From UHGV virus genome UHGV-0162383: a DNA stretch of 34,947 bases; one strand, given 5' to 3'. The DNA is from a virus. Below are positions 1,827 through 14,311 of this stretch, in pieces. Both the position numbers and the translations under genes were made by a program. The notes below the pieces were generated by a model. It saw nothing but the letters and a program-made list of their open reading frames with translations. It did not search any database and was not told where the DNA came from. Numbering within the stretch: position 1 is the stretch's first letter; every line of letters starts with the position of its first letter.

Positions 1827-3503
1827 CTAAGCAACATGTAGTTCATCGTTGGCGGAAGTGGCTGCTTTGCGTTCCTGCTCAATAGCTAGTGACTCTCTAT
1901 ATTCTTTCGCCTCTGCAAACATTGTCCAGTGGGCATTGATGTTCATATCTTCAATAACCGATTTAATTTCTTTAATATTTACGTTAAAAAACTCTTTTCG
2001 TGAGTTAATTTTATTGACCTGCTTTTCGTTGAAGACTTTATGCAGATGATTTTCTAATGACGGTGCATCATCACTATAAATCATCGCATGAACATCGAAC
2101 GAAAAAGGAACACTAGCATCCCCAAGTTCACGAACACGATCAAGTGGTTCAAGGCGGCGTGTCATTCCAATTTTATATACATCTTCGCCAAATGAGCCAA
2201 TATTGCTAATTATATAAACATGGCCTGATCTAGTTTGTTGAGCCATAGAAATAGCTCGTTGGTTTTTAGCTTCAGCTTCTTCATATTTTAACTGTAGTTC
2301 AGCTATTTTTTGCTCTAAAGCTAAGCGTTGTTCTTCATTTGCAAGCATAAGCTCTTTCGTTGCTTTATTTATAGCTTGCTGAATAGCTTTTTCTTCTTTT
2401 TCGGCTTCTTTTATCGCTTTTTCATACTCTCTACGAGCTCTTTCCTCTTCACGAAGCTGTTCTTTAATCCTTCTTTGCTCCTCTTTTTCTTCGAGCATAA
2501 TTTCATTAACTGCAACTCCCCATTTTAGCTCGTTGAGTCGTGCCTGAAGATAGATGTCACTTATTTTTGCGGATCTAAAAGCAGAGCCATTATAATTTAC
2601 AAGTTGAAATGCATCTTTTATTTCTTGGGAAAGTTTTCCAAAATTGTTGTGTTTGACTTTTGATAAAATACTGTCAACTCTTCCATTGAAGGCATCCAAA
2701 ACAAAGTTGATAGCAGTATTACGCCTGTTTTGCTCAACATAATCACACGAAGCTGCTTTATTAGTTTTTATTAATGATTTTGTTAACTCCCTGGCTTTTT
2801 GTAATTCCTTGCCTGCATCTGTAAACTCATAATTTTCTGCCAATTCATCAAGTACACTACGGTTAGGGATGATCCATTCATCGCCATAACCTTCAATTTT
2901 ATTTTTCATTGATTTGGCAACTGCTTCATATTTTTCTGCAAACTCTTTAGCTTCATATGCTGAACCAGCAATCTCTTTTGCTCTTTCTTCTGCATCGGAA
3001 ATAATTTTTACTGCGTTGTCATTAGCATTTGAGATCAGCTCATTTGCTTTACTGTTGGCATTATCAAGACGTTCTTTGGCTTTCAGGCGTGCATCGCGAG
3101 CGTCTTTGGTGATTGCTATAGCTTCGCTATTAGCGTTGCTTATTGTTATCTGAGCTTGATAACTTGCTTCGTTTACTGTCTTAGCTGCCTTTATTTGGGC
3201 TTCTTCTATTTTTTGCCTAGCTATTGAGTCTGCATTTTTTATCTTATTCTCTGCCTCCATCACTGCGCTGTGCAATTCTTCGTATTGCCATAATGGTGCT
3301 GCTCGCCCTTCAAGCTCTGATAGATCTCGTGCAGTCTGTGCTAACTTTTCTTGATTTTCACTCAGTTGGCTGGAAAGGGCTATGTTGTTAGCCGTCAGGT
3401 TATCTATGGCGGCTTTGTGTTCTTTACTTTGCTTAAATAATATTATAGCTAGAACAGGGGCGAGAAATGCTAATAAGAATATAACGATGGAAAATGAATT
3501 CAT
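1827..3503 (-). CDS. Membrane-anchored coiled-coil protein with DUF4041-like middle region and C-terminal T5orf172 (GIY-YIG-like) domain; cargo (moron) gene
   Basis: 558 aa; N-terminal hydrophobic helix (IVIFLLAFLAPVLAIILF), long A/E/K-rich heptad-like stretches, C-terminal GHVYIISN...VYKIGMT.R...R..E motif resembling GIY-YIG/T5orf172; strongly AT-rich compared with flanking int and cI. Confidence 0.6.
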   Translation of the reverse strand: MNSFSIVIFLLAFLAPVLAIILFKQSKEHKAAIDNLTANNIALSSQLSENQEKLAQTARDLSELEGRAAPLWQYEELHSAVMEAENKIKNADSIARQKIEEAQIKAAKTVNEASYQAQITISNANSEAIAITKDARDARLKAKERLDNANSKANELISNANDNAVKIISDAEERAKEIAGSAYEAKEFAEKYEAVAKSMKNKIEGYGDEWIIPNRSVLDELAENYEFTDAGKELQKARELTKSLIKTNKAASCDYVEQNRRNTAINFVLDAFNGRVDSILSKVKHNNFGKLSQEIKDAFQLVNYNGSAFRSAKISDIYLQARLNELKWGVAVNEIMLEEKEEQRRIKEQLREEERARREYEKAIKEAEKEEKAIQQAINKATKELMLANEEQRLALEQKIAELQLKYEEAEAKNQRAISMAQQTRSGHVYIISNIGSFGEDVYKIGMTRRLEPLDRVRELGDASVPFSFDVHAMIYSDDAPSLENHLHKVFNEKQVNKINSRKEFFNVNIKEIKSVIEDMNINAHWTMFAEAKEYRESLAIEQERKAATSANDELHVA

Positions 3504-3523: not shown

Positions 3524-4120
3524 TCAATTTGAAACTATTGTACTTCTTATACAAGCAACCACTTCAATATCAGAAAATGCACATTCAAAGCTATTCTCTG
3601 TAGTTGTAATTTTAATCATACCTTTTGGAAGCTTTGTGATTTTTCGAATGGAATAGGTTCCGTCGATGTTGATTAACCAGTGTCCATCAAGTACTTCAGA
3701 AAATTTTTGATCACAAATGTATGTGACAAGCCCATCCTGAATAACAATTGGTGATGAAAGATTTGCAGGAAGAAATGATGAATCGAATACATATGAACCA
3801 TCTTCAATCATTTTGCCTGCGGTAAGGCGAAACTTGGGAAGCTCTTCTGTGGCTACTGTCAGCGAGCTTTGCTTAAGTCCTTGCCCGGTGGTTAACCATT
3901 TCAGTGAGGTTCCTGTTTCAAGAGCACATTGGATTATCCAGTCTGCAGGAAACGTATCCCGCAAATACCTGTTCGCCAGAGTGCTTTTTGATACTTCCAA
4001 GTGATCAGCTAAAGCCTGTCGTGTCGTAAAGCCATAAGCTTCGACTAATCGCTCAATCGCAGCCTTACCACCTTTATTGGGATTTATTTTGATCTCACTT
4101 GGGTACTTTGATGTTGACAT
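3524..4120 (-). CDS. cI: Phage immunity repressor, 186 CI-like (HTH N-terminal domain)
   Basis: 198 aa; N-terminal HTH-like segment (YGFTTRQALADHLEVSKSTLANRYLRD); position immediately after int and divergent from apl/cII-like genes, as in 186. Confidence 0.75.
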   Translation of the reverse strand: MSTSKYPSEIKINPNKGGKAAIERLVEAYGFTTRQALADHLEVSKSTLANRYLRDTFPADWIIQCALETGTSLKWLTTGQGLKQSSLTVATEELPKFRLTAGKMIEDGSYVFDSSFLPANLSSPIVIQDGLVTYICDQKFSEVLDGHWLINIDGTYSIRKITKLPKGMIKITTTENSFECAFSDIEVVACIRSTIVSN

Positions 4121-4215
4121 ATCTCTTTTGCGATCCTAGTATCAGTTTTGTCCCCATTTGGGTACTTGTCACGATTACTACAGGCTCACCACAAGCCAAT
4201 AGGAGATGTTGCATC
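4121..4215. promoter_or_regulatory. Lysis-lysogeny switch region between divergent repressor and apl/cII-like genes (expected to hold the lytic/lysogenic promoters and operators)
   Basis: Intergenic region between the divergent cI-like (-) and apl-like (+) starts; individual -35/-10 elements could not be assigned confidently. Confidence 0.4.
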
Positions 4216-4437: not shown

Positions 4438-4469
4438 TTCCATTTTGGGATACATCAGGGGTGTCGACC

Positions 4470-4979
4470 ATGTTTGATTACCAAGTTTCCAAACATCCAC
4501 ATTTTGATGAAGCCTGTCGTGCATTCGCATTGCGCCACAACCTGGTGCAACTGGCAGAACGTGCTGGCATGAATGTGCAGATTCTGCGGAACAAGCTGAA
4601 CCCATCTCAACCTCATTTATTAACCGCACCAGAAATCTGGCTGCTTACCGATCTGACTGAAGATTCAACGCTGGTAGATGGTTTTCTGGCACAGATTCAC
4701 TGCCTGCCATGTGTACCGATTAATGAGGTTGCAAAAGAGAAACTGCCGCATTACGTCATGAGCGCAACTGCAGAGATCGGACGTGTTGCAGCAGGTGCGG
4801 TATCTGGTGATGTAAAAACTAGTGCCGGTCGTCGTGATGCTATCAGCAGCATTAACTCTGTAACACGACTGATGGCGCTGGCTGCTGTTTCATTGCAGGC
4901 CCGTTTACAGGCTAATCCTGCGATGGCGAGTGCAGTTGATACCGTGACTGGCCTCGGTGCTTCATTCGGTTTGCTGTGA
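4470..4979 (+). CDS. cII: 186 CII-like transcriptional activator
   Basis: 169 aa from ATG 4470 ([45 protein letters not shown]...); size and position match 186 CII. Confidence 0.7.
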
Positions 4980-4986
4980 GGTGCTT

Positions 4987-5187
4987 ATGCTGACGAAAGA
5001 ACCATCATTTGCATCGCTGCTGGTAAAACAAAGCCCGGCAATGCACTACGGTCACGGCTGGATCATGGGTGAGGATGGTAAACGCTGGCATCCGTGCCGT
5101 TCACAAGATGAATTGCTGGCAGAACTATCTACGAAAAAACGGGGGAACAAATGGCTATTGAAGGCGCTGCGGCGACTGTTCCATTAA
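4987..5187 (+). CDS. Small early-operon protein of unknown function (possibly Fil-like)
   Basis: 66 aa ORF with GAGGTG RBS before ATG 4987; position corresponds to the fil/dhr region of 186 but identity not established. Confidence 0.4.
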   Translation: MLTKEPSFASLLVKQSPAMHYGHGWIMGEDGKRWHPCRSQDELLAELSTKKRGNKWLLKALRRLFH

Positions 5188-5492
5188 GCCCCGGTGAACG
5201 CCTGAATGGACTTAATCACATAGCGGAATTAAGGGCGAAAGTTTTTGGCCTGAATATTGAGTCAGAGCTTGAGCGGTTTATTAAAGATATGCGTGATCCA
5301 CGGGATATCAATAACGAACAAAATAAACGAGCACTGGCAGCCATATTCTTTATGGCAAAAATTCCGGCTGAACGTCATAGCATCAGCATCAATGAGCTGA
5401 CCACTGACGAAAAGCGGGAGTTGATTAAAGCAATGAATCATTTTCGTGCAGTGGTGAGCTTATTTCCCAGACGGCTAACCATGCCGAATTAA
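5151..5492 (+). CDS. Hypothetical early protein
   Basis: 113 aa ORF with GGGGGA RBS; phage-like GC content; overlaps the upstream gene by 37 nt in a different frame. Confidence 0.45.
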   Translation: MAIEGAAATVPLSPGERLNGLNHIAELRAKVFGLNIESELERFIKDMRDPRDINNEQNKRALAAIFFMAKIPAERHSISINELTTDEKRELIKAMNHFRAVVSLFPRRLTMPN

Positions 5493-5559: not shown

Positions 5560-5793
5560 ATGCGTAATATTGAAATCCTCACGACTAAAACCGGACCGGA
5601 TGATGCAGGGCTTAATATTTTACTGACAGAGGTTCGTCTGGAAGAACGCCGGGCAAGGGCTGAAGCAATGGCAGCTCGCCTTGATAGCCTGGCGTGTCAT
5701 ATCTCATCCCGTCAGCTAAACCACGTGGAAGCGGCAGAACTGCTGCGTGTGACTGCTGAAGCAATCCAGAACGAAGCGCAGGAGATCCACTAA
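5560..5793 (+). CDS. Hypothetical early protein
   Basis: 77 aa from ATG 5560 with AGGAG 8 nt upstream; stop overlaps the next start (TAATG). Confidence 0.45.
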   Translation: MRNIEILTTKTGPDDAGLNILLTEVRLEERRARAEAMAARLDSLACHISSRQLNHVEAAELLRVTAEAIQNEAQEIH

Positions 5794-6020
5794 TGGCTGA
5801 TGCAATGGATCTCGTACAGCAGCGCGTTGAAGAAGAACGCCAGCGCCATATCCGTGCTGCCCGTGCCAAAACACCGGGCGTGTCTCGCGTGCTTTGCATT
5901 GAGTGTGAAGCGCCAATTCCGCCAGCACGCCGCCGTGCCATTCCGGGTGTGCAGCTTTGCATTACCTGCCAGGAAATTGCAGAGCTGAAAGGCAAACATT
6001 ACAACGGAGGTGCTGTATGA
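5793..6020 (+). CDS. TraR/DksA-family C4 zinc-finger protein
   Basis: 75 aa with CxxC...CxxC (CIECEAPIPPARRRAIPGVQLCITCQ), the TraR/DksA zinc-finger pattern common in P2-like early operons. Confidence 0.7.
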   Translation: MADAMDLVQQRVEEERQRHIRAARAKTPGVSRVLCIECEAPIPPARRRAIPGVQLCITCQEIAELKGKHYNGGAV

Positions 6021-6874
6021 GCACCATCCTGAAATGGGCGGGAAATAAAACCGCCATTATGTCCGAACTGAAAAAACACCTTCCTGCAGGCCCGCGACTG
6101 GTTGAACCTTTCGCGGGTTCCTGTGCTGTGATGATGGAGACGGATTATCCCTGCTATCTGGTTGCGGATATTAATCCTGATTTAATCAACCTCTATAAAA
6201 AGGTTGCCGCTGATTGTGAGGTGTTTATATCTCGTGCCAGAGCTTTATTTGAGGACGCAAACAGGGAGGTGACTTATTACAACATAAGACAGGAGTTTAA
6301 TTACTCAACTGAAATTACTGATTTCATGAAAGCGGTATATTTCCTGTATCTCAATCGTCACGGTTACCGTGGGTTATGTCGTTATAACAAGAGCGGGCAT
6401 TTCAACATTCCATACGGTAATTATAAAAATCCGTATTTCCCTGAAAAAGAAATTCGCGCATTTGCAGAGAAAGCCCAGCGAGCAACGTTTATCTGCGCCA
6501 GCTTTGATGAAACGCTGGCGATGCTGCAGGTGGGGGATGTGGTGTATTGCGATCCGCCTTATGACGGTACGTTTTCCGGCTATCACACTGACGGCTTCAC
6601 TGAAGATGACCAGTATCACCTGGCATCCGTTCTTGAACATCGGTCATCAGAAGGATATCCGGTCATTGTTTCTAACAGTGACACATCCCTGATCCGTTCG
6701 TTGTATCGCAATTTCACCCACCACTACATCAAAGCAAAACGCAGCATCGGTGTGGCAGCTGGTGAGAGTAAATCTGCAACAGAAATCATCGCTGTTTCCG
6801 GGCCGCGCTGCTGGGTAGGATTTGATCCTTCGCGTGGCGTGGATTGTTCCGTCGTGTACGGAGTGCGTGCATGA
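6017..6874 (+). CDS. dam: DNA adenine methyltransferase (Dam-like, N6-adenine MTase)
   Basis: N-terminal ILKWAGNK...PFAGSCAV (AdoMet-binding) and DPPY catalytic motif ([15 protein letters not shown]); ATG 6017 with GGAGG RBS, ATGA overlap with the upstream stop. Confidence 0.85.
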
Positions 6875-9285
6875 GCCATGCTGATATGAACAACTGCAGC
6901 GGCTTTAATGAGGTCGCCGCAGCATTCTCATGGAACAGCCCGAAAAAGGCCATTAACCCTTATCTGGACCCGGCGGAAGTTGCGCCGGTTTCTGCGCTTT
7001 CAAACCTGATCACTCTGTACGCTGCCGATAACGAGCAGGAACAACTGCGCCGCGAGGCACTGAGTGATCAGGTCTGGGAGCGTTATTTCTTTAATGAATC
7101 CCGTGATCCTGTCCAGCGCGAAATGGAGCAGGATAAGCTCATTAGCCGGGCAAAGCTGGCGCATGAGCAGCAGCGTTTTAATCCGGATATGGTCATTCTG
7201 GCGGACGTCAACGCCCAGCCTTCCCATATCAGCAAGCCGCTGATGCAACGTATTGAATACTTTAGCAGCCTGGGCAGGCCAAAGGCTTATTCCCGCTATT
7301 TACGTGAGACGATTAAGCCATGTCTGGAACGACTGGAGCATGTACGCGACAGCCAGCTATCTGCATCTTTTCGCTTTATGGCAAGCCATGAAGGGCTGGA
7401 CGGCCTGCTGATCCTGCCTGAAATGAGTCAGGATCAGGTGAAGCGCCTGTCTACCCTTGTCGCCGCGCATATGAGCATGTGCCTTGATGCAGCTTGTGGT
7501 GATTTGTATGCCACCGATGACGTTAAGCCAGAAGAAATCCGCAAGACATGGGAAAAGGTGGCAGCGGAAACCCTGCGTCTGGATGTCATCCCGCCTGCGT
7601 TTGAGCAACTCCGCCGGAAAAGAAACCGCCGTAAACCCGTGCCCTATGAACTCATTCCGGGTTCGCTGGCGCGTATGTTGTGCGCCGACTGGTGGTACCG
7701 GAAATTATGGAAGATGCGTTGCGAATGGCGGGAAGAGCAGTTGCGTGCTGTCTGCCTGGTCAGCAAAAAAGCATCTCCCTATGTCAGCTATGAAGCCGTG
7801 ATGCATAAACGTGAGCAGCGCCGTAAGTCGCTGGAGTTTTTTCGTTCTCATGAACTGGTGAACGAAGACGGCGACACGCTGGACATGGAGGATGTGGTAA
7901 ACGCCAGCAGCAGCAACCCTGCGCATCGCCGCAATGAGATGATGGCCTGTGTTAAAGGCCTGGAGCTTATCGCGGAAATGCGTGGTGACTGCGCCGTTTT
8001 CTACACCATTACCTGTCCGTCACGTTTCCATTCCACGCTCAATAACGGCAGACCAAACCCAACCTGGACAAATGCGACGGTAAGACAAAGCAGCGATTAT
8101 CTGGTCGGCATGTTTGCTGCATTTCGTAAGGCGATGCACAAAGCCGGGTTGCGCTGGTATGGCGTGCGGGTGGCTGAGCCGCATCATGACGGTACGGTTC
8201 ACTGGCACCTGTTGTGTTTCATGCGCAAAAAAGACCGCCGTGCCATTACTGCATTGTTGCGTAAGTTTGCCATCCGTGAAGACCGCGAGGAACTGGGTAA
8301 TAACACTGGTCCACGCTTTAAATCTGAGCTGATAAACCCGCGCAAAGGAACACCGACAAGCTACATCGCGAAATACATTAGTAAGAACATTGACGGGCGT
8401 GGTCTGGCTGGCGAGATCAGCAAGGAAACGGGTAAATCCCTGCGTGATAACGCTGAATACGTTAATGCCTGGGCGTCTCTGCATCGTGTTCAGCAATTCC
8501 GCTTCTTTGGTATTCCGGGGCGTCAGGCTTACCGTGAACTGCGATTGCTGGCTGGTCAGGCGGCAAGGCAACAGGGCGACAAAAAAGCAGGTGCGCCGGT
8601 ACTGGATAACCCGCGCCTTGATGCCATCCTGGCTGCTGCTGATGCTGGTTGTTTTGCCACTTACATCATGAAGCAGGGTGGTGTACTGGTTCCCCGCAAA
8701 TATCACCTCATCAGAACTGCTTATGAAATTAACGAAGAGCCGACCGCCTATGGCGATCACGGCATTCGTATTTATGGCATCTGGTCACCCATTGCAGAGG
8801 GCAAGATCTGCACTCATGCAGTGAAGTGGAAAATGGTTCGTAAAGCCGTTGACGTTCAGGAGGCGGTAGCCGACCAGGGCGCTTGCGCCCCTTGGACTCG
8901 TGGCAATAACTGTCCCCTTGCTGAAAATTTGTACCAACAAGGGAAAGACAAATCAGCTGATGGAGATACCAGAACGGATATCACCCGCATGGATGACAAG
9001 GAGTTGCACGATTACCTGCACAGTATGAGCAAAAAAGAGCGCCGGGAACTGGCTGCAAGGTTACGCCTGGTGAAACCGAAACGGCGTAAAGACTACAAAC
9101 AGCGAATTACAGACCATCAGCGACAGCAGCTCGTCTATGAACTGGAGTCCAGAGGATTTAATGGCAGCGAGAAAGAGGTCGATTTACTCCTTCGCGGCGG
9201 CAGTATTCCGTCAGGAGCAGGTCTGCGTATCTTCTATCGGAACCAGCGTTTGCAGGAAGATGATAAGTGGCGAAACCTGTATTAA
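6871..9285 (+). CDS. A: Replication initiation protein A (rolling-circle HUH endonuclease, P2 gpA family)
   Basis: About 804 aa; HUH motif ([13 protein letters not shown]) and downstream Tyr-containing segment ([10 protein letters not shown]); ATG 6871 overlaps the dam stop (ATGA); the six-frame ORF begins upstream at TTG 6844. Confidence 0.9.
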
Positions 9286-10141: not shown

Positions 10142-10357
10142 ATGTCAAGCATCGCCGCATTTAGCCTGGGTAACCCAGTTGAACGTCTGGCAAGGGTTCT
10201 TAAAGAGAACCAGGACAAACTCAATCTTAGTAAAGATGGTTTTGTGTCCGTAGACTTGTCTAACAAAAGAGCAATGGATGCCATCAAGGCACAGATGGAT
10301 AAGCTTGAAGGCATCAAAACGAGCACTGTAAAAGAGAAAACTAATAGAACCAGATAA
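10142..10357 (+). CDS. Small soluble charged protein; first gene of a two-gene cargo operon
   Basis: 71 aa; strong RBS AGGGGGAG before ATG 10142; stop overlaps the downstream start (TAATG); AT-rich. Confidence 0.45.
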   Translation: MSSIAAFSLGNPVERLARVLKENQDKLNLSKDGFVSVDLSNKRAMDAIKAQMDKLEGIKTSTVKEKTNRTR

Positions 10358-11199
10358 TGGCAACATTACTTTTAGCAGTGATTTTGGTTAGTGGTTTTAT
10401 TTATGTAAACCTATCACTTTCAACAAGATACCGATATAAGCGTTCCAACGGCTGGGACGCTTATTTTTTTGTGGCTGCCTGGGGTATTGTTTTTTTTCTC
10501 CTTGGCGGTTTTTTCACCTTTATTTTGAACGTCAGCGGAGGGTTTCGTTGGCTGGCTAATGCCTTGAATCTAACACCTGACAGTTTTAATGGCATGTTGT
10601 CTTCATCGAAAGACAAACTTCAAAGAATAAATGAAATCAAACAGATAGCATGGGTTATGATTTCAATTGTCCTCGCTGCGATTTCAGGTTTTGGAAATAA
10701 GTTACGCACATCACGTGGAGATCGTCGCTGGGATGCCTTAGCTAAAGCTGTGGGTAATAACGCTTTCGAATCATTACTCATGGAAGCGTCCGCAAGACAG
10801 TTTCCGATCATAGCAACTCTGTCGTCTCGCAAAATCTATGTTGGTCTTGTTACTTGTCCGGCGTTAGAAAACGGGCTTTCAGAGCACCTTGAACTTCTCC
10901 CGATGTTAAGCGGATATCGGGATAAAGATGATCTAACGATTAGTATCACGACTAACTATCACCAACATTATCTTGATAGTGGTGTGATAAGTGGAATGTC
11001 TCGGCTTAATATCGAAGATTTCCGTGTGCTCATACCAAAAGATGAGGTTGAAACAATTTCGTTTTTTGATACTGAGACATATAACAAATTTAAAGAAAAT
11101 GAAGCCAGGGATAGAAAGAGCTGTCGAAAGATTGGTAGTAAAAGTGCATCTTCGCGCAGCAAGCGTGCAGCAGATGCTGAGTCAAATGATCGTGCATGA
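10357..11199 (+). CDS. Integral membrane protein (about 3 TM helices) with cytoplasmic C-terminal domain; second gene of the cargo operon
   Basis: 280 aa; hydrophobic segments near residues 3-17, 35-57 and 97-112, then a soluble domain of roughly 130 aa and a basic Ser/Arg/Lys-rich tail; translationally coupled to the upstream ORF; followed by an intrinsic terminator. Confidence 0.5.
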   Translation: MATLLLAVILVSGFIYVNLSLSTRYRYKRSNGWDAYFFVAAWGIVFFLLGGFFTFILNVSGGFRWLANALNLTPDSFNGMLSSSKDKLQRINEIKQIAWVMISIVLAAISGFGNKLRTSRGDRRWDALAKAVGNNAFESLLMEASARQFPIIATLSSRKIYVGLVTCPALENGLSEHLELLPMLSGYRDKDDLTISITTNYHQHYLDSGVISGMSRLNIEDFRVLIPKDEVETISFFDTETYNKFKENEARDRKSCRKIGSKSASSRSKRAADAESNDRA

Positions 11200-11247
11200 C
11201 TATGCTGCATGAGATCGCATGATCGTTTGAGGATCGTTTTTGCTAAG

Positions 11248-11272
11248 GCCCGCCAGAACTGGCGGGCTTTTG
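11248..11272 (+). terminator. Rho-independent terminator (GCCCGCCAG..CTGGCGGGC + TTTTG)
   Basis: Perfect 9-nt inverted repeat with short loop followed by a T-run, about 50 bp after the stop of the membrane-protein gene. Confidence 0.7.
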
Positions 11273-11316
11273 CGTAGATCATGCACCTGCATGAAAACTA
11301 CTACATAAAGCGGGCA

Positions 11317-11335
11317 GGCGTGGCGGGGATACGAG
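11317..11335. other. Candidate cos (cohesive-end) site, GGCGTGGCGGGGA...
   Basis: GGCGTGGCGGGGA matches my recollection of the first 13 nt of the 19-nt cohesive ends of P2/186 (GGCG[A/T]GGCGGGGAAAGCA..); located between the A-side cargo and the portal-side cargo, where cos lies in this family. Confidence 0.4.
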
Positions 11336-11455: not shown

Positions 11456-13237
11456 ATGAATTTTGATGCAACACCACTAAATATAAAAAACATTCTATCT
11501 GTAAAACAAAGATATGTTATTCCACGTAATCAACGTGAGTTTAGTTGGGAAAAGCTTCAGCTTGAAGAATTATGGCAAGATATTGTCAGAAACATAAGGT
11601 TGAATGAAGATGGACAGAACTTGGAGTGTTCAGAATATTTTATAGGGACTATTGTTCTTTCTGGAGCAGATAGTGATGATGTATTAGAAGTGGTTGATGG
11701 ACAACAACGATTTTCAGTTATTACTATATTGCTTTCATTAATATCGCGTAAATTGCGTTCCTTAGGGCAAGATTCATTAGCGGATGATATATTTAAAACA
11801 TATATCGTTACTGTGAGTCCTACATTTAGCAGAAGCCAATTAGCTTCAAATGGTGAGACATTTATTGAAAAATTAGCAAAAAATAGCGATAGAACATATT
11901 TTAAGTTAAAATATCAAGATCGCGAAGAGCATCAAGTTGATGAATCTTGTGAAGAAGATGTACGTATAAGTTATGCAGGAATTTTTCTTTCTAGAAAACT
12001 AGGGAGGAAATCACTCTGTTCTGCATTGTTGCGAGATGGTGCAAAACATTATAATAACCAAGATTATATATTTTGTTTGACTGCTGTATATAGAATGATT
12101 ACCAATTATTTGAAGTTGGTAAAAATATCTGTAGGTAAGGAGGATGATGCTTATGATATTTTTGAAGTGTTGAATGCTCGAGGGATAAACTTAAGTTCAA
12201 TTGATTTGATAAAGAATAAAGTATTCCAAACTTGCACTCAAACATATCCGGTAGATATTGCAAAAACAAAATGGGATTATATCGTTACTCAAATTGAGTC
12301 TAGGGATAGTAATAGCACTATTGCTGATTATATTAGAACGTGGTGGCTTTCTAAGTATAATTATATTGGAGAAGATCAACTTTATCGTGCTTTTAAACGT
12401 GAGATTCAAGATGAGAATACTTTATTGTCATCAGCATCATTTCTGAACGAATTATATGATGATGTTGAATTATACTGTAAAATAATAGCGCCAAATACAG
12501 ATGACTGGCCTCAACCTGATCAGCGTGAAATTTACAACTCGTTAAAAGCATTCGAGATTTTTAATGTGAGTATTCCTCGACCATTTGTACTCTCATTACT
12601 TAGAAAACGTAAAGAGAAACCGAGAGCCCTTACACAATCAATGCTGATAGAATGTTTGAAGTCCTTAGAGTCATTTCACTTTAAGTTTAATGCAGTATGT
12701 CGTCTAAGACCATCTGGAATCGATGCAAAATATTCTGTATTAGCAGTAAGAATGAATAAGGCATTAAATAAAAGAGATGTTGAGGGTGTTATTAATGACG
12801 CATTAGATTATTTTACACAGAAAGGGCCTTCAGAAAATATATTCAAACAAGCATTTTCAAAGAATATTGTTTATACAAATAAAAAGTCTGGGCAAAGGAA
12901 GTTGATTGTTTATATTTTTGACAAATTGGAACGTATCAGACGAGGGACGCGAGAGTTAAAAATGGATATAGTTTCTTTGGAACACATATCATCTCAAAGC
13001 AAAACTAACGAGTCAGTCGTGGGTATGATTGGTAATTTACTACCACTCTGTTTTTCACTTAATGAAGATTGCAAAAATTATGAGTTGCACAAAAAAATAG
13101 AATCTTATAAAAAATCTGATTTAAAATTAGTTACAGAGTTTGTTAGTGAGTCAGAAGCAAGAGAACATAAATGGGATGATTCATTAATAAAAGAAAGAAC
13201 AGATAGCTTGGCGTTAGAAACGTTTGCTAAAATATAA
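11456..13237 (+). CDS. DUF262/DUF1524 two-domain protein, GmrSD-like (type IV restriction-like) nuclease; cargo gene
   Basis: 593 aa; N-terminal DUF262/ParB-like motifs (IPRNQREFSWE and VVDGQQRFSV), C-terminal His-Me-finger-like motifs (SLEHISSQS ... GNLLPLCFSLNEDCKN); strongly AT-rich; RBS GAGGA before ATG 11456. Confidence 0.6.
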   Translation: MNFDATPLNIKNILSVKQRYVIPRNQREFSWEKLQLEELWQDIVRNIRLNEDGQNLECSEYFIGTIVLSGADSDDVLEVVDGQQRFSVITILLSLISRKLRSLGQDSLADDIFKTYIVTVSPTFSRSQLASNGETFIEKLAKNSDRTYFKLKYQDREEHQVDESCEEDVRISYAGIFLSRKLGRKSLCSALLRDGAKHYNNQDYIFCLTAVYRMITNYLKLVKISVGKEDDAYDIFEVLNARGINLSSIDLIKNKVFQTCTQTYPVDIAKTKWDYIVTQIESRDSNSTIADYIRTWWLSKYNYIGEDQLYRAFKREIQDENTLLSSASFLNELYDDVELYCKIIAPNTDDWPQPDQREIYNSLKAFEIFNVSIPRPFVLSLLRKRKEKPRALTQSMLIECLKSLESFHFKFNAVCRLRPSGIDAKYSVLAVRMNKALNKRDVEGVINDALDYFTQKGPSENIFKQAFSKNIVYTNKKSGQRKLIVYIFDKLERIRRGTRELKMDIVSLEHISSQSKTNESVVGMIGNLLPLCFSLNEDCKNYELHKKIESYKKSDLKLVTEFVSESEAREHKWDDSLIKERTDSLALETFAKI

Positions 13238-13273: not shown

Positions 13274-14311
13274 TTACATACACTCCACAGAGTATTCACT
13301 GAATGAGATGATGTTTTTTTTAGCCCATTCATTAAGTTGCAGAATATGTTTTTGAATTGGTAGTAACTCATTCATAACAAATACTTTCGCGGCCTTCTCC
13401 ACATCCCCAAAACCCCCAACATTATTAGGCATTATCCCCATCATTTGCGGCGGCACGCGGTGCGCAGCCATCATGTCATCACGGCTCACGTTTTTGATAT
13501 TCAGAAACTCATCCTTCGCTGCGACTTCTGACAACGGGATAATCTGAAGACCGTCTTTTTTACCATTAGGCGAGTACATAAACAGATTGCGGAAGTTACC
13601 TGGTCCTTTGGCGCTTTTCATCGCATTGCGAAGGTTGTTCACGTCCTCCTGGTTCTGCGCGGCATCGGTCATGTACATGATGAAGCCTGCATGACTGCCG
13701 TTAATGTAATACTTGCGGCGGAACAGCGTGGCGGACTCGTTGAGCAGGGCTGACGGAATGGCAGAAAGATAGCCGGGCAGACCATAGATCTCCTGATTTA
13801 TGTCCGGTTCCATCAGATGGAAAATGCTGCCTTTCGTGAACTGATACGGCTGCGTGGTCATGCCGTATTGCACAAACCAGTAGGTATCCAGGTCTAACCC
13901 GCGTCGGGTGTATTTTGCCAGCGCAGGTTCAAGGGCGATAACTTCACCGAAGCGGTTCGTGCGTTTCTCCAGATAGGCGTTACCAAATACCAGATAGTCC
14001 TGTACAAAACGCGAAAAAGCCTGTTGGCTGAGCAGCGGATGAGGGATATAGGTACTGGTCAGAATGTTGCACTTTACTGCAATCGGGGAACTGTGATGCA
14101 CGGCAGCGCGGAAGGTGCGCGCCAGTCCGTCAAAGCTGACGGGCGGCTCATACCAACGGTCCATCTGTACGCATTCCACATAGTCCAGTAATTCTCGGCG
14201 GTCCAGAACTGGAACGGGATCGCCGAAGCTGAATGCTTCGGCTGTAGTCTGGTTTTTATGCTGGATCTGATTCGTCGCCGCAGTGCGGTTTTTCTTACTC
14301 TTTCCCATCAA
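13274..14311 (-). CDS. Q: Portal (capsid vertex) protein, P2 gpQ family
   Basis: 345 aa; sequence (FSFGDPVPVLDRRELLDYVE...WYEPPVSFDGLAR...GNAYLE..) matches my recollection of P2 Q; adjacent to and co-oriented with the terminase. Confidence 0.9.
   Translation of the reverse strand: MMGKSKKNRTAATNQIQHKNQTTAEAFSFGDPVPVLDRRELLDYVECVQMDRWYEPPVSFDGLARTFRAAVHHSSPIAVKCNILTSTYIPHPLLSQQAFSRFVQDYLVFGNAYLEKRTNRFGEVIALEPALAKYTRRGLDLDTYWFVQYGMTTQPYQFTKGSIFHLMEPDINQEIYGLPGYLSAIPSALLNESATLFRRKYYINGSHAGFIMYMTDAAQNQEDVNNLRNAMKSAKGPGNFRNLFMYSPNGKKDGLQIIPLSEVAAKDEFLNIKNVSRDDMMAAHRVPPQMMGIMPNNVGGFGDVEKAAKVFVMNELLPIQKHILQLNEWAKKNIISFSEYSVECM

Follow-up and report, generated by a model that had tools for sequence, protein, structure and literature searches.

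The early region of the prophage described here carries a complete gene for a Dam-family DNA adenine methyltransferase (dam), set between a zinc-finger gene (zf) and the replication initiator gene A and overlapping each of them by a few nucleotides. The joint reading that we favour, and to which we give a probability of roughly 80%, is that the product is a solitary GATC methyltransferase made only in lytic growth together with the A protein (gpA), that its gene is translationally coupled to A, and that it would top up the Dam activity of the host before packaging. The analysis shows what the gene is, that it is conserved and under purifying selection, where it stands in the operon, and that it has conserved overlaps with its neighbours; we infer the GATC specificity, the timing of expression, real translational coupling and the biological benefit. 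The feature itself is already known, being standard, widely annotated and present in about one quarter of complete E. coli genomes. The window, by which we mean the whole stretch of 34,947 nucleotides (UHGV virus genome UHGV-0162383), is nearly all one prophage, with a left flank (1-700) that matches the E. coli rcdA region at 100% identity, and the element is a 186/Fels-2-like (Peduoviridae) prophage adjoining rcdA.

The zf-dam-A block in the early lytic operon

The three genes lie on the plus strand, and profile matches agree with the identities given to them in the preliminary description, namely a TraR/DksA zinc finger, a Dam methyltransferase with a DPPY motif and replication gene A. The first (zf, 5793-6020), a homologue of P2 orf82, matches PF01258 (43.5 bits, cutoff 24.9), TIGR02419 (65.8 bits, cutoff 59.7) and phrog_54 in profile searches, and its product carries four cysteines (C35, C38, C56 and C59) in the pattern CxxC-x17-CxxC, which places it among the TraR/DksA C4 zinc-finger proteins. 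The second (dam, 6017-6874; PF02086, TIGR00571) encodes a Dam-family N6-adenine DNA methyltransferase of 285 residues, of the D12 class and alpha type. The third (A, 6871-9285) encodes the replication initiator, a rolling-circle nickase, with matches to PF05840 (Phage_GPA, 426 bits) and phrog_91 ('nicking at origin of replication').

The ATGA overlaps claimed on either side of dam stand exactly where they had been placed. Read from the sequence, the zf/dam junction at 6017-6020 joins the dam start (ATG, 6017-6019) to the zf stop (TGA, 6018-6020), and the dam/A junction at 6871-6874 joins the A start (ATG, 6871-6873) to the dam stop (TGA, 6872-6874); one step upstream, the DUF2732 and zf genes meet in a TAATG overlap (5791-5795). 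The Shine-Dalgarno sequence of dam (GGAGG, 6006-6010, plus strand) lies 6 nt 5' of the ATG within the zf coding sequence, that of gene A (GGAG, 6860-6863, plus strand) lies 7 nt 5' of its ATG within the dam coding sequence, and GTACGGAGT...ATGA ahead of gene A is kept among relatives. ATGA junctions are not distinctive of dam, as about eight genuine ones occur in the same prophage. An in-frame TTG at 5957 is unlikely as the dam start, for E. coli Dam aligns from residue 3-4 onwards with the product initiated at ATG 6017, and the latter start is the one used by all annotated relatives.

The wider layout is that of the early lytic operon of phage 186, both in the order of cI, pR and cII and in the position of a pR-like promoter between cI and apl, as for pR of that phage. 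On the minus strand are the integrase gene (691-1743) and the gene for a 186-type CI repressor (3524-4120). The promoter (TTGACA-17-TAGTAT, 4114-4142, plus strand) was found by a consensus scan with 10 of 12 matches, its function being predicted from this likeness, and is followed on the plus strand by cII, fil, DUF5347, DUF2732, zf, dam, A and a DinI-like gene. The genes ahead of zf comprise a cII-like regulator (4467-4979; PF06892, 144.5 bits; phrog_101), a Fil-like gene (4987-5187; PF10893, 85 bits on the ORF 4957-5187), whose start at 4987 was set by analogy with the 201-nt gene of phage Cartapus, a DUF5347 gene (5151-5492; PF17282, 114 bits) and a DUF2732 gene homologous to P2 orf80 (5560-5793; PF10809, 97 bits), all on the plus strand. 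The earlier assignment of dam to the early operon is thus borne out by its position downstream of cII and fil in the early lytic operon, and the pR-like promoter would drive the whole apl-cII-fil...zf-dam-A unit. From its place in a CI-repressed early operon, expression of dam would be limited to lytic growth: the gene would be silent in the lysogen, and its product made with gpA on induction or infection.

Two further genes of this prophage deserve mention. A 280-codon ORF (10357-11199, plus strand), flanked by the DinI-like gene and the terminator near cos, encodes hydrophobic N-terminal segments and had no Pfam or PADLOC match; the table of a K. pneumoniae Fels-2-like prophage has a hypothetical gene of equal length (843 nt). 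A 558-residue protein encoded between the integrase gene and cI (1827-3503, minus strand) represents a second defence cargo, with DUF4041 and T5orf172/MUG113 (GIY-YIG-like) domains and matches to the PADLOC PD-Lambda-1 models (7e-120).

The block is common. Of 5426 complete E. coli genomes, 1240 contain its 1082-bp zf-dam stretch at an identity of at least 90% and annotate it in the same way, and the whole zf-dam-A block also occurs, annotated as such, in dozens of phage records. The novelty implied by the preliminary description is therefore not supported, as the annotations of over 1200 E. coli genomes already include the arrangement. Over the 4.9-kb early region, identity with many Klebsiella, Escherichia and Salmonella Peduoviridae is about 96%, and there the three genes already bear the labels TraR/DksA regulator, DNA adenine methylase and replication endonuclease. 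Fels-2, Klebsiella phage 4LV2017, the ST11/ST258 prophages, Escherichia phage Cartapus and other Peduoviridae carry dam in the same place; in prophages of the Fels-2/4LV2017/Cartapus type the 228/858/2415-nt block and its 4-nt overlaps are the same, with protein identity of 93-96% and DNA identity of about 96%, and they differ from the window only in accessory defence genes elsewhere. The published table of a K. pneumoniae Fels-2-like prophage gives zf (228 nt), dam (858 nt) and A (2415 nt) with the same 4-nt overlaps (PMC7826664), and an ORF for a Dam methylase was reported in the 186-related retron-Ec67 prophage (Hsu et al., 1990, as cited in PMC7826664). M.EcoMIV, the 'prophage Dam homolog' of the ST131 strain EC958 that is untranscribed in the lysogen, was considered as a counterpart and rejected; because it sits in a Mu-like prophage and the P2-like prophage of EC958 has no dam, its expression data do not apply here.

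Family membership and predicted specificity of the phage Dam

The phage Dam belongs to the Dam family and the D12 class by profiles, motifs and GATC-contact residues alike. It matches PF02086 with 256.3 bits (cutoff 22) over profile positions 1-253 of 253, and TIGR00571 ('Dam family') with 320.3 bits (cutoff 114.85). The motifs EPFAGS (residues 30-35) and DPPY (179-182), which align with EPFVGA and D181-Y184 of E. coli Dam, show little or no variation in 39 relatives and follow the alpha-class order (motif I, target recognition, motif IV). Structures of E. coli Dam are matched with E = 7e-74, with weaker matches to DpnM and T4 Dam, both of them GATC enzymes, and identity with K-12 Dam is 46% over 267 aligned residues. 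With E. coli Dam (M.EcoKDam; PDB 2G1P, 4GOL and other entries) the protein shares the fold family, an FxGxG-like AdoMet motif, a DNA-recognition region and DPPY. It differs from that enzyme in one contact residue, in a C-terminal extension of 22 residues, in scoring below an equivalog cutoff and in genomic setting, E. coli Dam sitting in the chromosomal aroK-damX-dam operon and the phage Dam in a repressed lytic operon. Its score against NF008152, the equivalog model of the chromosomal enzyme, is 288.1 bits where the cutoff is 441, and because of this shortfall the phage enzyme is, as judged by profile, a member of the Dam family and not the housekeeping orthologue. That the methylase is an orphan, as had been proposed, is upheld by its neighbours zf and gpA, no nuclease gene being adjacent, and its best PADLOC match is likewise 'orphan methyltransferase' (1e-110).

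The residues that touch the recognition site carry most of the argument on specificity. In E. coli Dam, R124 reads the fourth base pair, L122 and P134 the third, and K9 and Y138 the first, while Y119 intercalates, and loss of R124 abolishes discrimination at the fourth base pair (PMC4417163). Six of the seven GATC-contact residues are identical in the phage Dam, E. coli K9, Y119, L122, R124, P134 and Y138 corresponding to phage K6, Y117, L120, R122, P132 and Y136. Among 15 aligned relatives from several Peduoviridae genera, five of these six are invariant, and the sixth, Y117, is replaced by phenylalanine in the Dam of ESSI2_ev129, a conservative change that keeps the aromatic ring. The seventh, N120, which hydrogen-bonds a base in E. 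coli Dam, is arginine (R118) throughout the P2-like subfamily. Purifying selection on dam is evident from dN/dS values of 0.12-0.18 against four relatives. Because of the structure matches, the identity with K-12 Dam, the kept contact residues and the purifying selection, methylation of the adenine of GATC is very probably the activity of this protein, and GATC as the likeliest specificity, put forward earlier, thereby gains the backing of the Dam structure match, the 46% identity and the six contact residues. Among the papers covered by a literature search, none reported direct experiments on a P2/186-like Dam.

The substitution of N120 by arginine across the whole P2-like subfamily could also be read as the sign of an adenine methyltransferase of other or broader specificity, for example relaxed GAT-N or non-palindromic recognition, which would set a phage-specific mark and not duplicate host Dam. 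The score below the chromosomal Dam equivalog cutoff would fit such an enzyme, as would the apparent redundancy of a copy of the host activity in a Dam+ host, and some prophage methyltransferases are indeed non-specific (e.g., M.EcoGI and M.EcoGII), though these are of class beta. We nevertheless regard a different specificity as unlikely, as the kept contact residues include R124, the identity with E. coli Dam extends over the full length, and P1 Dmt, a distant relative (36%), is a GATC enzyme just as DpnM and T4 Dam are. At the position of N120, P1 Dmt, DpnM and T4 Dam differ from one another as well. Non-specific activity of the M.EcoGII kind was rejected, since M.EcoGII is a beta-class enzyme of a different family.

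Beyond the catalytic domain, the P2-like Dam proteins (loci L019-L098) share a C-terminal extension of about 22 residues (264-285) with the pattern W-x-G-x-D-x3-G-x-D-x-S-V. It has changed faster than the remainder of the enzyme, its coding sequence houses the ribosome-binding site of A, and it is missing both from E. coli Dam and from the Dam of ESSI2_ev129, where dcm and not A follows. Structure prediction of the phage Dam was poor (mean pLDDT 60, with about 25-34 in the tail) and did not resolve the extension.

A variable slot upstream of A and the coupling of translation

What lies between zf and A was surveyed in 80 loci fetched from IMG/VR, in which gpA is at least 78% identical to that of the window. 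Some loci hold dam alone, as in the window; others hold it together with a DUF3850/ASCH gene, an exonuclease gene, a gene for a PAPS-reductase-like protein, one for a C5-methyltransferase, or one for a 276-residue protein; the remaining ones hold the PAPS-reductase-like gene alone or are empty. The 276-residue protein, encoded between dam and A in four loci (L048, L049, L054 and L055; e.g., L048:4596-5426), has no Pfam match. Phage ESSI2_ev129 has dam plus dcm in this slot; phage 186 has an exonuclease-like gene, a DUF5405 gene and a PAPS-reductase-like gene, and phage P2 has a DUF5405 gene only (orf83). These two phages thus lack dam, as do about 10 of 77 close relatives. The start of A is overlapped over 4 nt (ATGA or GTGA) by the last gene of the slot in 56 of the 78 loci, whether that gene encodes Dam, the PAPS-reductase-like protein or the C5-methyltransferase; in the other loci the overlap is of 1 or 20 nt, or there is a short gap, mostly where the slot is empty. 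The interval from zf to A is a slot for variable cargo, and the overlap with A is a property of the locus, not of dam.

The same holds outside this survey, for in 186 (orf84-A) and in P2 (orf83-A) the end of the upstream gene overlaps the start of A as in the window, the 186 junction being ATGA. According to the record of phage 186, translation of A apparently needs translation to the end of the upstream orf84. The window has the hallmarks of an operon of the 186/P2 type, in that the stop codon overlaps the start of A, the Shine-Dalgarno sequence lies in the upstream ORF and both are conserved in relatives. Taken together, the slot survey, the 186 record and the 186 junction lead to the view that translational coupling to A is, by analogy with 186, a documented and ancestral feature of the operon, in which dam is just the resident cargo. 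The tight co-expression with replication proposed for dam is in keeping with the note in the 186 record and with the retention of the 4-nt overlap in 56 of 78 relatives. With the stop of dam and the start of A sharing nucleotides, and the last dam codons holding the ribosome-binding site of A, ribosomes ending dam would deliver or unmask initiation at A. An actual dependence of A translation on that of dam is what we infer from the 186 case, and the fact that dam and A each have their own Shine-Dalgarno sequence means that initiation at A could also be independent of the upstream ribosome. In phage 186 an intragenic terminator, tM1, lies at the 5' end of A. The candidate for it in the window, a hairpin at 6970-6988 (-13.8 kcal/mol), is no better than shuffled sequences (z = -0.8 vs -4.0 for 186 tM1), and the window thus has no convincing counterpart of the 186 hairpin.

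The company that dam keeps bears on a further possibility, that the main selected role of the enzyme is host takeover, a burst of Dam removing hemimethylation from the host and so disturbing SeqA and oriC, mismatch repair and Dam-sensitive promoters. In 186, early genes co-expressed from the same operon act on the host, fil blocking division and dhr blocking host replication, and cells that overproduce Dam show physiological effects, the excess being detected by a retron defence system (Bobonis et al. preprint). We hold such a role to be decidedly improbable, as the presence of C5-methyltransferases and PAPS-reductase-like proteins in the same slot fits modification of the phage genome better.

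GATC sites, the GmrSD-like gene and the role of the enzyme

If the phage Dam were needed at cis-acting GATC sites of the phage itself, packaging or replication might be gated by methylation, as at pac of P1, where Dmt has a documented role. The origin offers little for such a scheme. The probable ori nick region within gene A (8877-8913, plus strand) was recognised by its similarity to the ori of 186 and P2, with GGGCGCTTGCGCCCCTTGGACTCGTGGCAATAACTGT compared with the sequence at the annotated nick site of each of these phages. This ori-like sequence contains no GATC, the nearest sites being at 8755 and 8805, and GATC control of the origin was rejected on this ground.

The surroundings of cos, placed at about 11317-11335 by comparison with P2 cosR, are richer in such sites. 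Just to its left, within 11188-11281, are five GATC sites (11188, 11213, 11221, 11232 and 11277), a cluster within 90 bp for which random placement gives P of about 0.04, and they surround a strong terminator hairpin (11246-11275). Two of the sites, 11221 and 11232, form a GATC-N7-GATC pair (11221-11235) that is 85-100 bp from cos and overlaps conserved GCATG repeats; although its spacer comes in 17 versions, 72 of 76 related loci keep the pair. The density of the cluster, the conservation of the pair and its absence from P2, 186 and SW9, which have no Dam, would suit a need of the phage Dam at its own sites. The pair is, however, as common without dam (8 of 10 relatives) as with it (63 of 65), by which a tie between the pair and the phage dam is refuted. 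The conserved blocks beside cos moreover extend beyond GATC, comprising the GCATG repeats, which are common to 186 and P2, GCATGATC and AGGATC, and the lack of GATC at ori weighs against the scheme as well. A general requirement for the phage Dam at cis-acting sites therefore seems to us hardly probable at all. Its more specific form, that the phage Dam and the GATC pair gate the recognition or cleavage of cos through methylation of new DNA, in the manner of P1 pac, we consider very unlikely; were it true, it would be a control not described for P2/186-like phages, and the position of dam beside A would free the packaging step from limiting host Dam. The conserved blocks beside cos may instead bind a protein, perhaps terminase, and contain Dam sites by coincidence.

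The preliminary description had also supposed a conflict within the prophage, the phage Dam making the DNA a target of the GmrSD-like gene. This gene (DUF262/DUF1524; 11456-13237, plus strand) matches PF03235 (113 bits) and PF07510 (45 bits) as well as PADLOC HEC-06 (7e-75), and with both the N- and the C-terminal GmrSD domains its product is a predicted type IV restriction enzyme. Its place is an insertion hotspot with cos on one side and the portal gene Q (13274-14311, minus strand) on the other, which in 186-related prophages is occupied by retrons Ec67 and Ec86 (PMC7826664). The conflict is implausible because the DNA of a Dam+ host itself carries GATC methylation, at about 99.9% of sites in the E. 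coli chromosome (PMC6602927), so that a nuclease directed at this mark would be self-destructive. No evidence was found for cleavage of GATC-m6A by the GmrSD-like gene product. To our knowledge, the characterised enzymes of the GmrSD family act on modified cytosines, not on m6A. Considered by itself, the GmrSD-like gene is likely to serve as a lysogenic-conversion defence against phages with modified cytosines. A better documented cost of a phage Dam is abortive infection of the retron-Sen2 type, mediated by methylated GATC in msDNA (Bobonis et al. preprint).

The reading that we prefer is therefore set out as follows. The phage Dam would be active and solitary, most likely methylating the adenine of GATC, and its burst of synthesis alongside gpA would supplement a limiting host enzyme, so that the DNA rapidly produced by rolling-circle replication would be fully GATC-methylated before it is packaged. 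Full methylation might then shield the phage against restriction of the MboI/DpnII type in the next host, and phage DNA would not be left hemimethylated, the state seen by MutH and SeqA. There is too little host Dam for DNA present in many copies, and the usual view of phage Dam enzymes is that they serve in anti-restriction (Bobonis et al. preprint). P1 Dmt, the Dam proteins of T4/T2, VT2-Sa and HP1 and that of the retron-Ec67 prophage are likewise solitary enzymes of the GATC type in Dam+ hosts, and such orphans are viewed as anti-restriction or packaging aids; they belong to different subfamilies and contexts, P1 Dmt being 36% identical to the enzyme of the window and T4 Dam matching it with E = 4e-18. 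An anti-restriction or packaging role of the phage Dam is plausible. Against this stand the facts that the host has its own Dam, which makes the benefit not obvious, that relatives without dam exist, and that the 117 GATC sites of the prophage (observed/expected 0.73) amount to only mild depletion.

For the biology of this prophage family, the slot view means that whichever gene stands last between zf and A overlaps the start of A. Enterobacterial prophages of this very common family carry dam as routine cargo, and the gene has little significance beyond its correct annotation. Prophage dam genes of this kind would be silent duplicates of host Dam that can confound the assignment of methylomes, and on induction the prophage Dam could set off Dam-sensing defences such as retron-Sen2.
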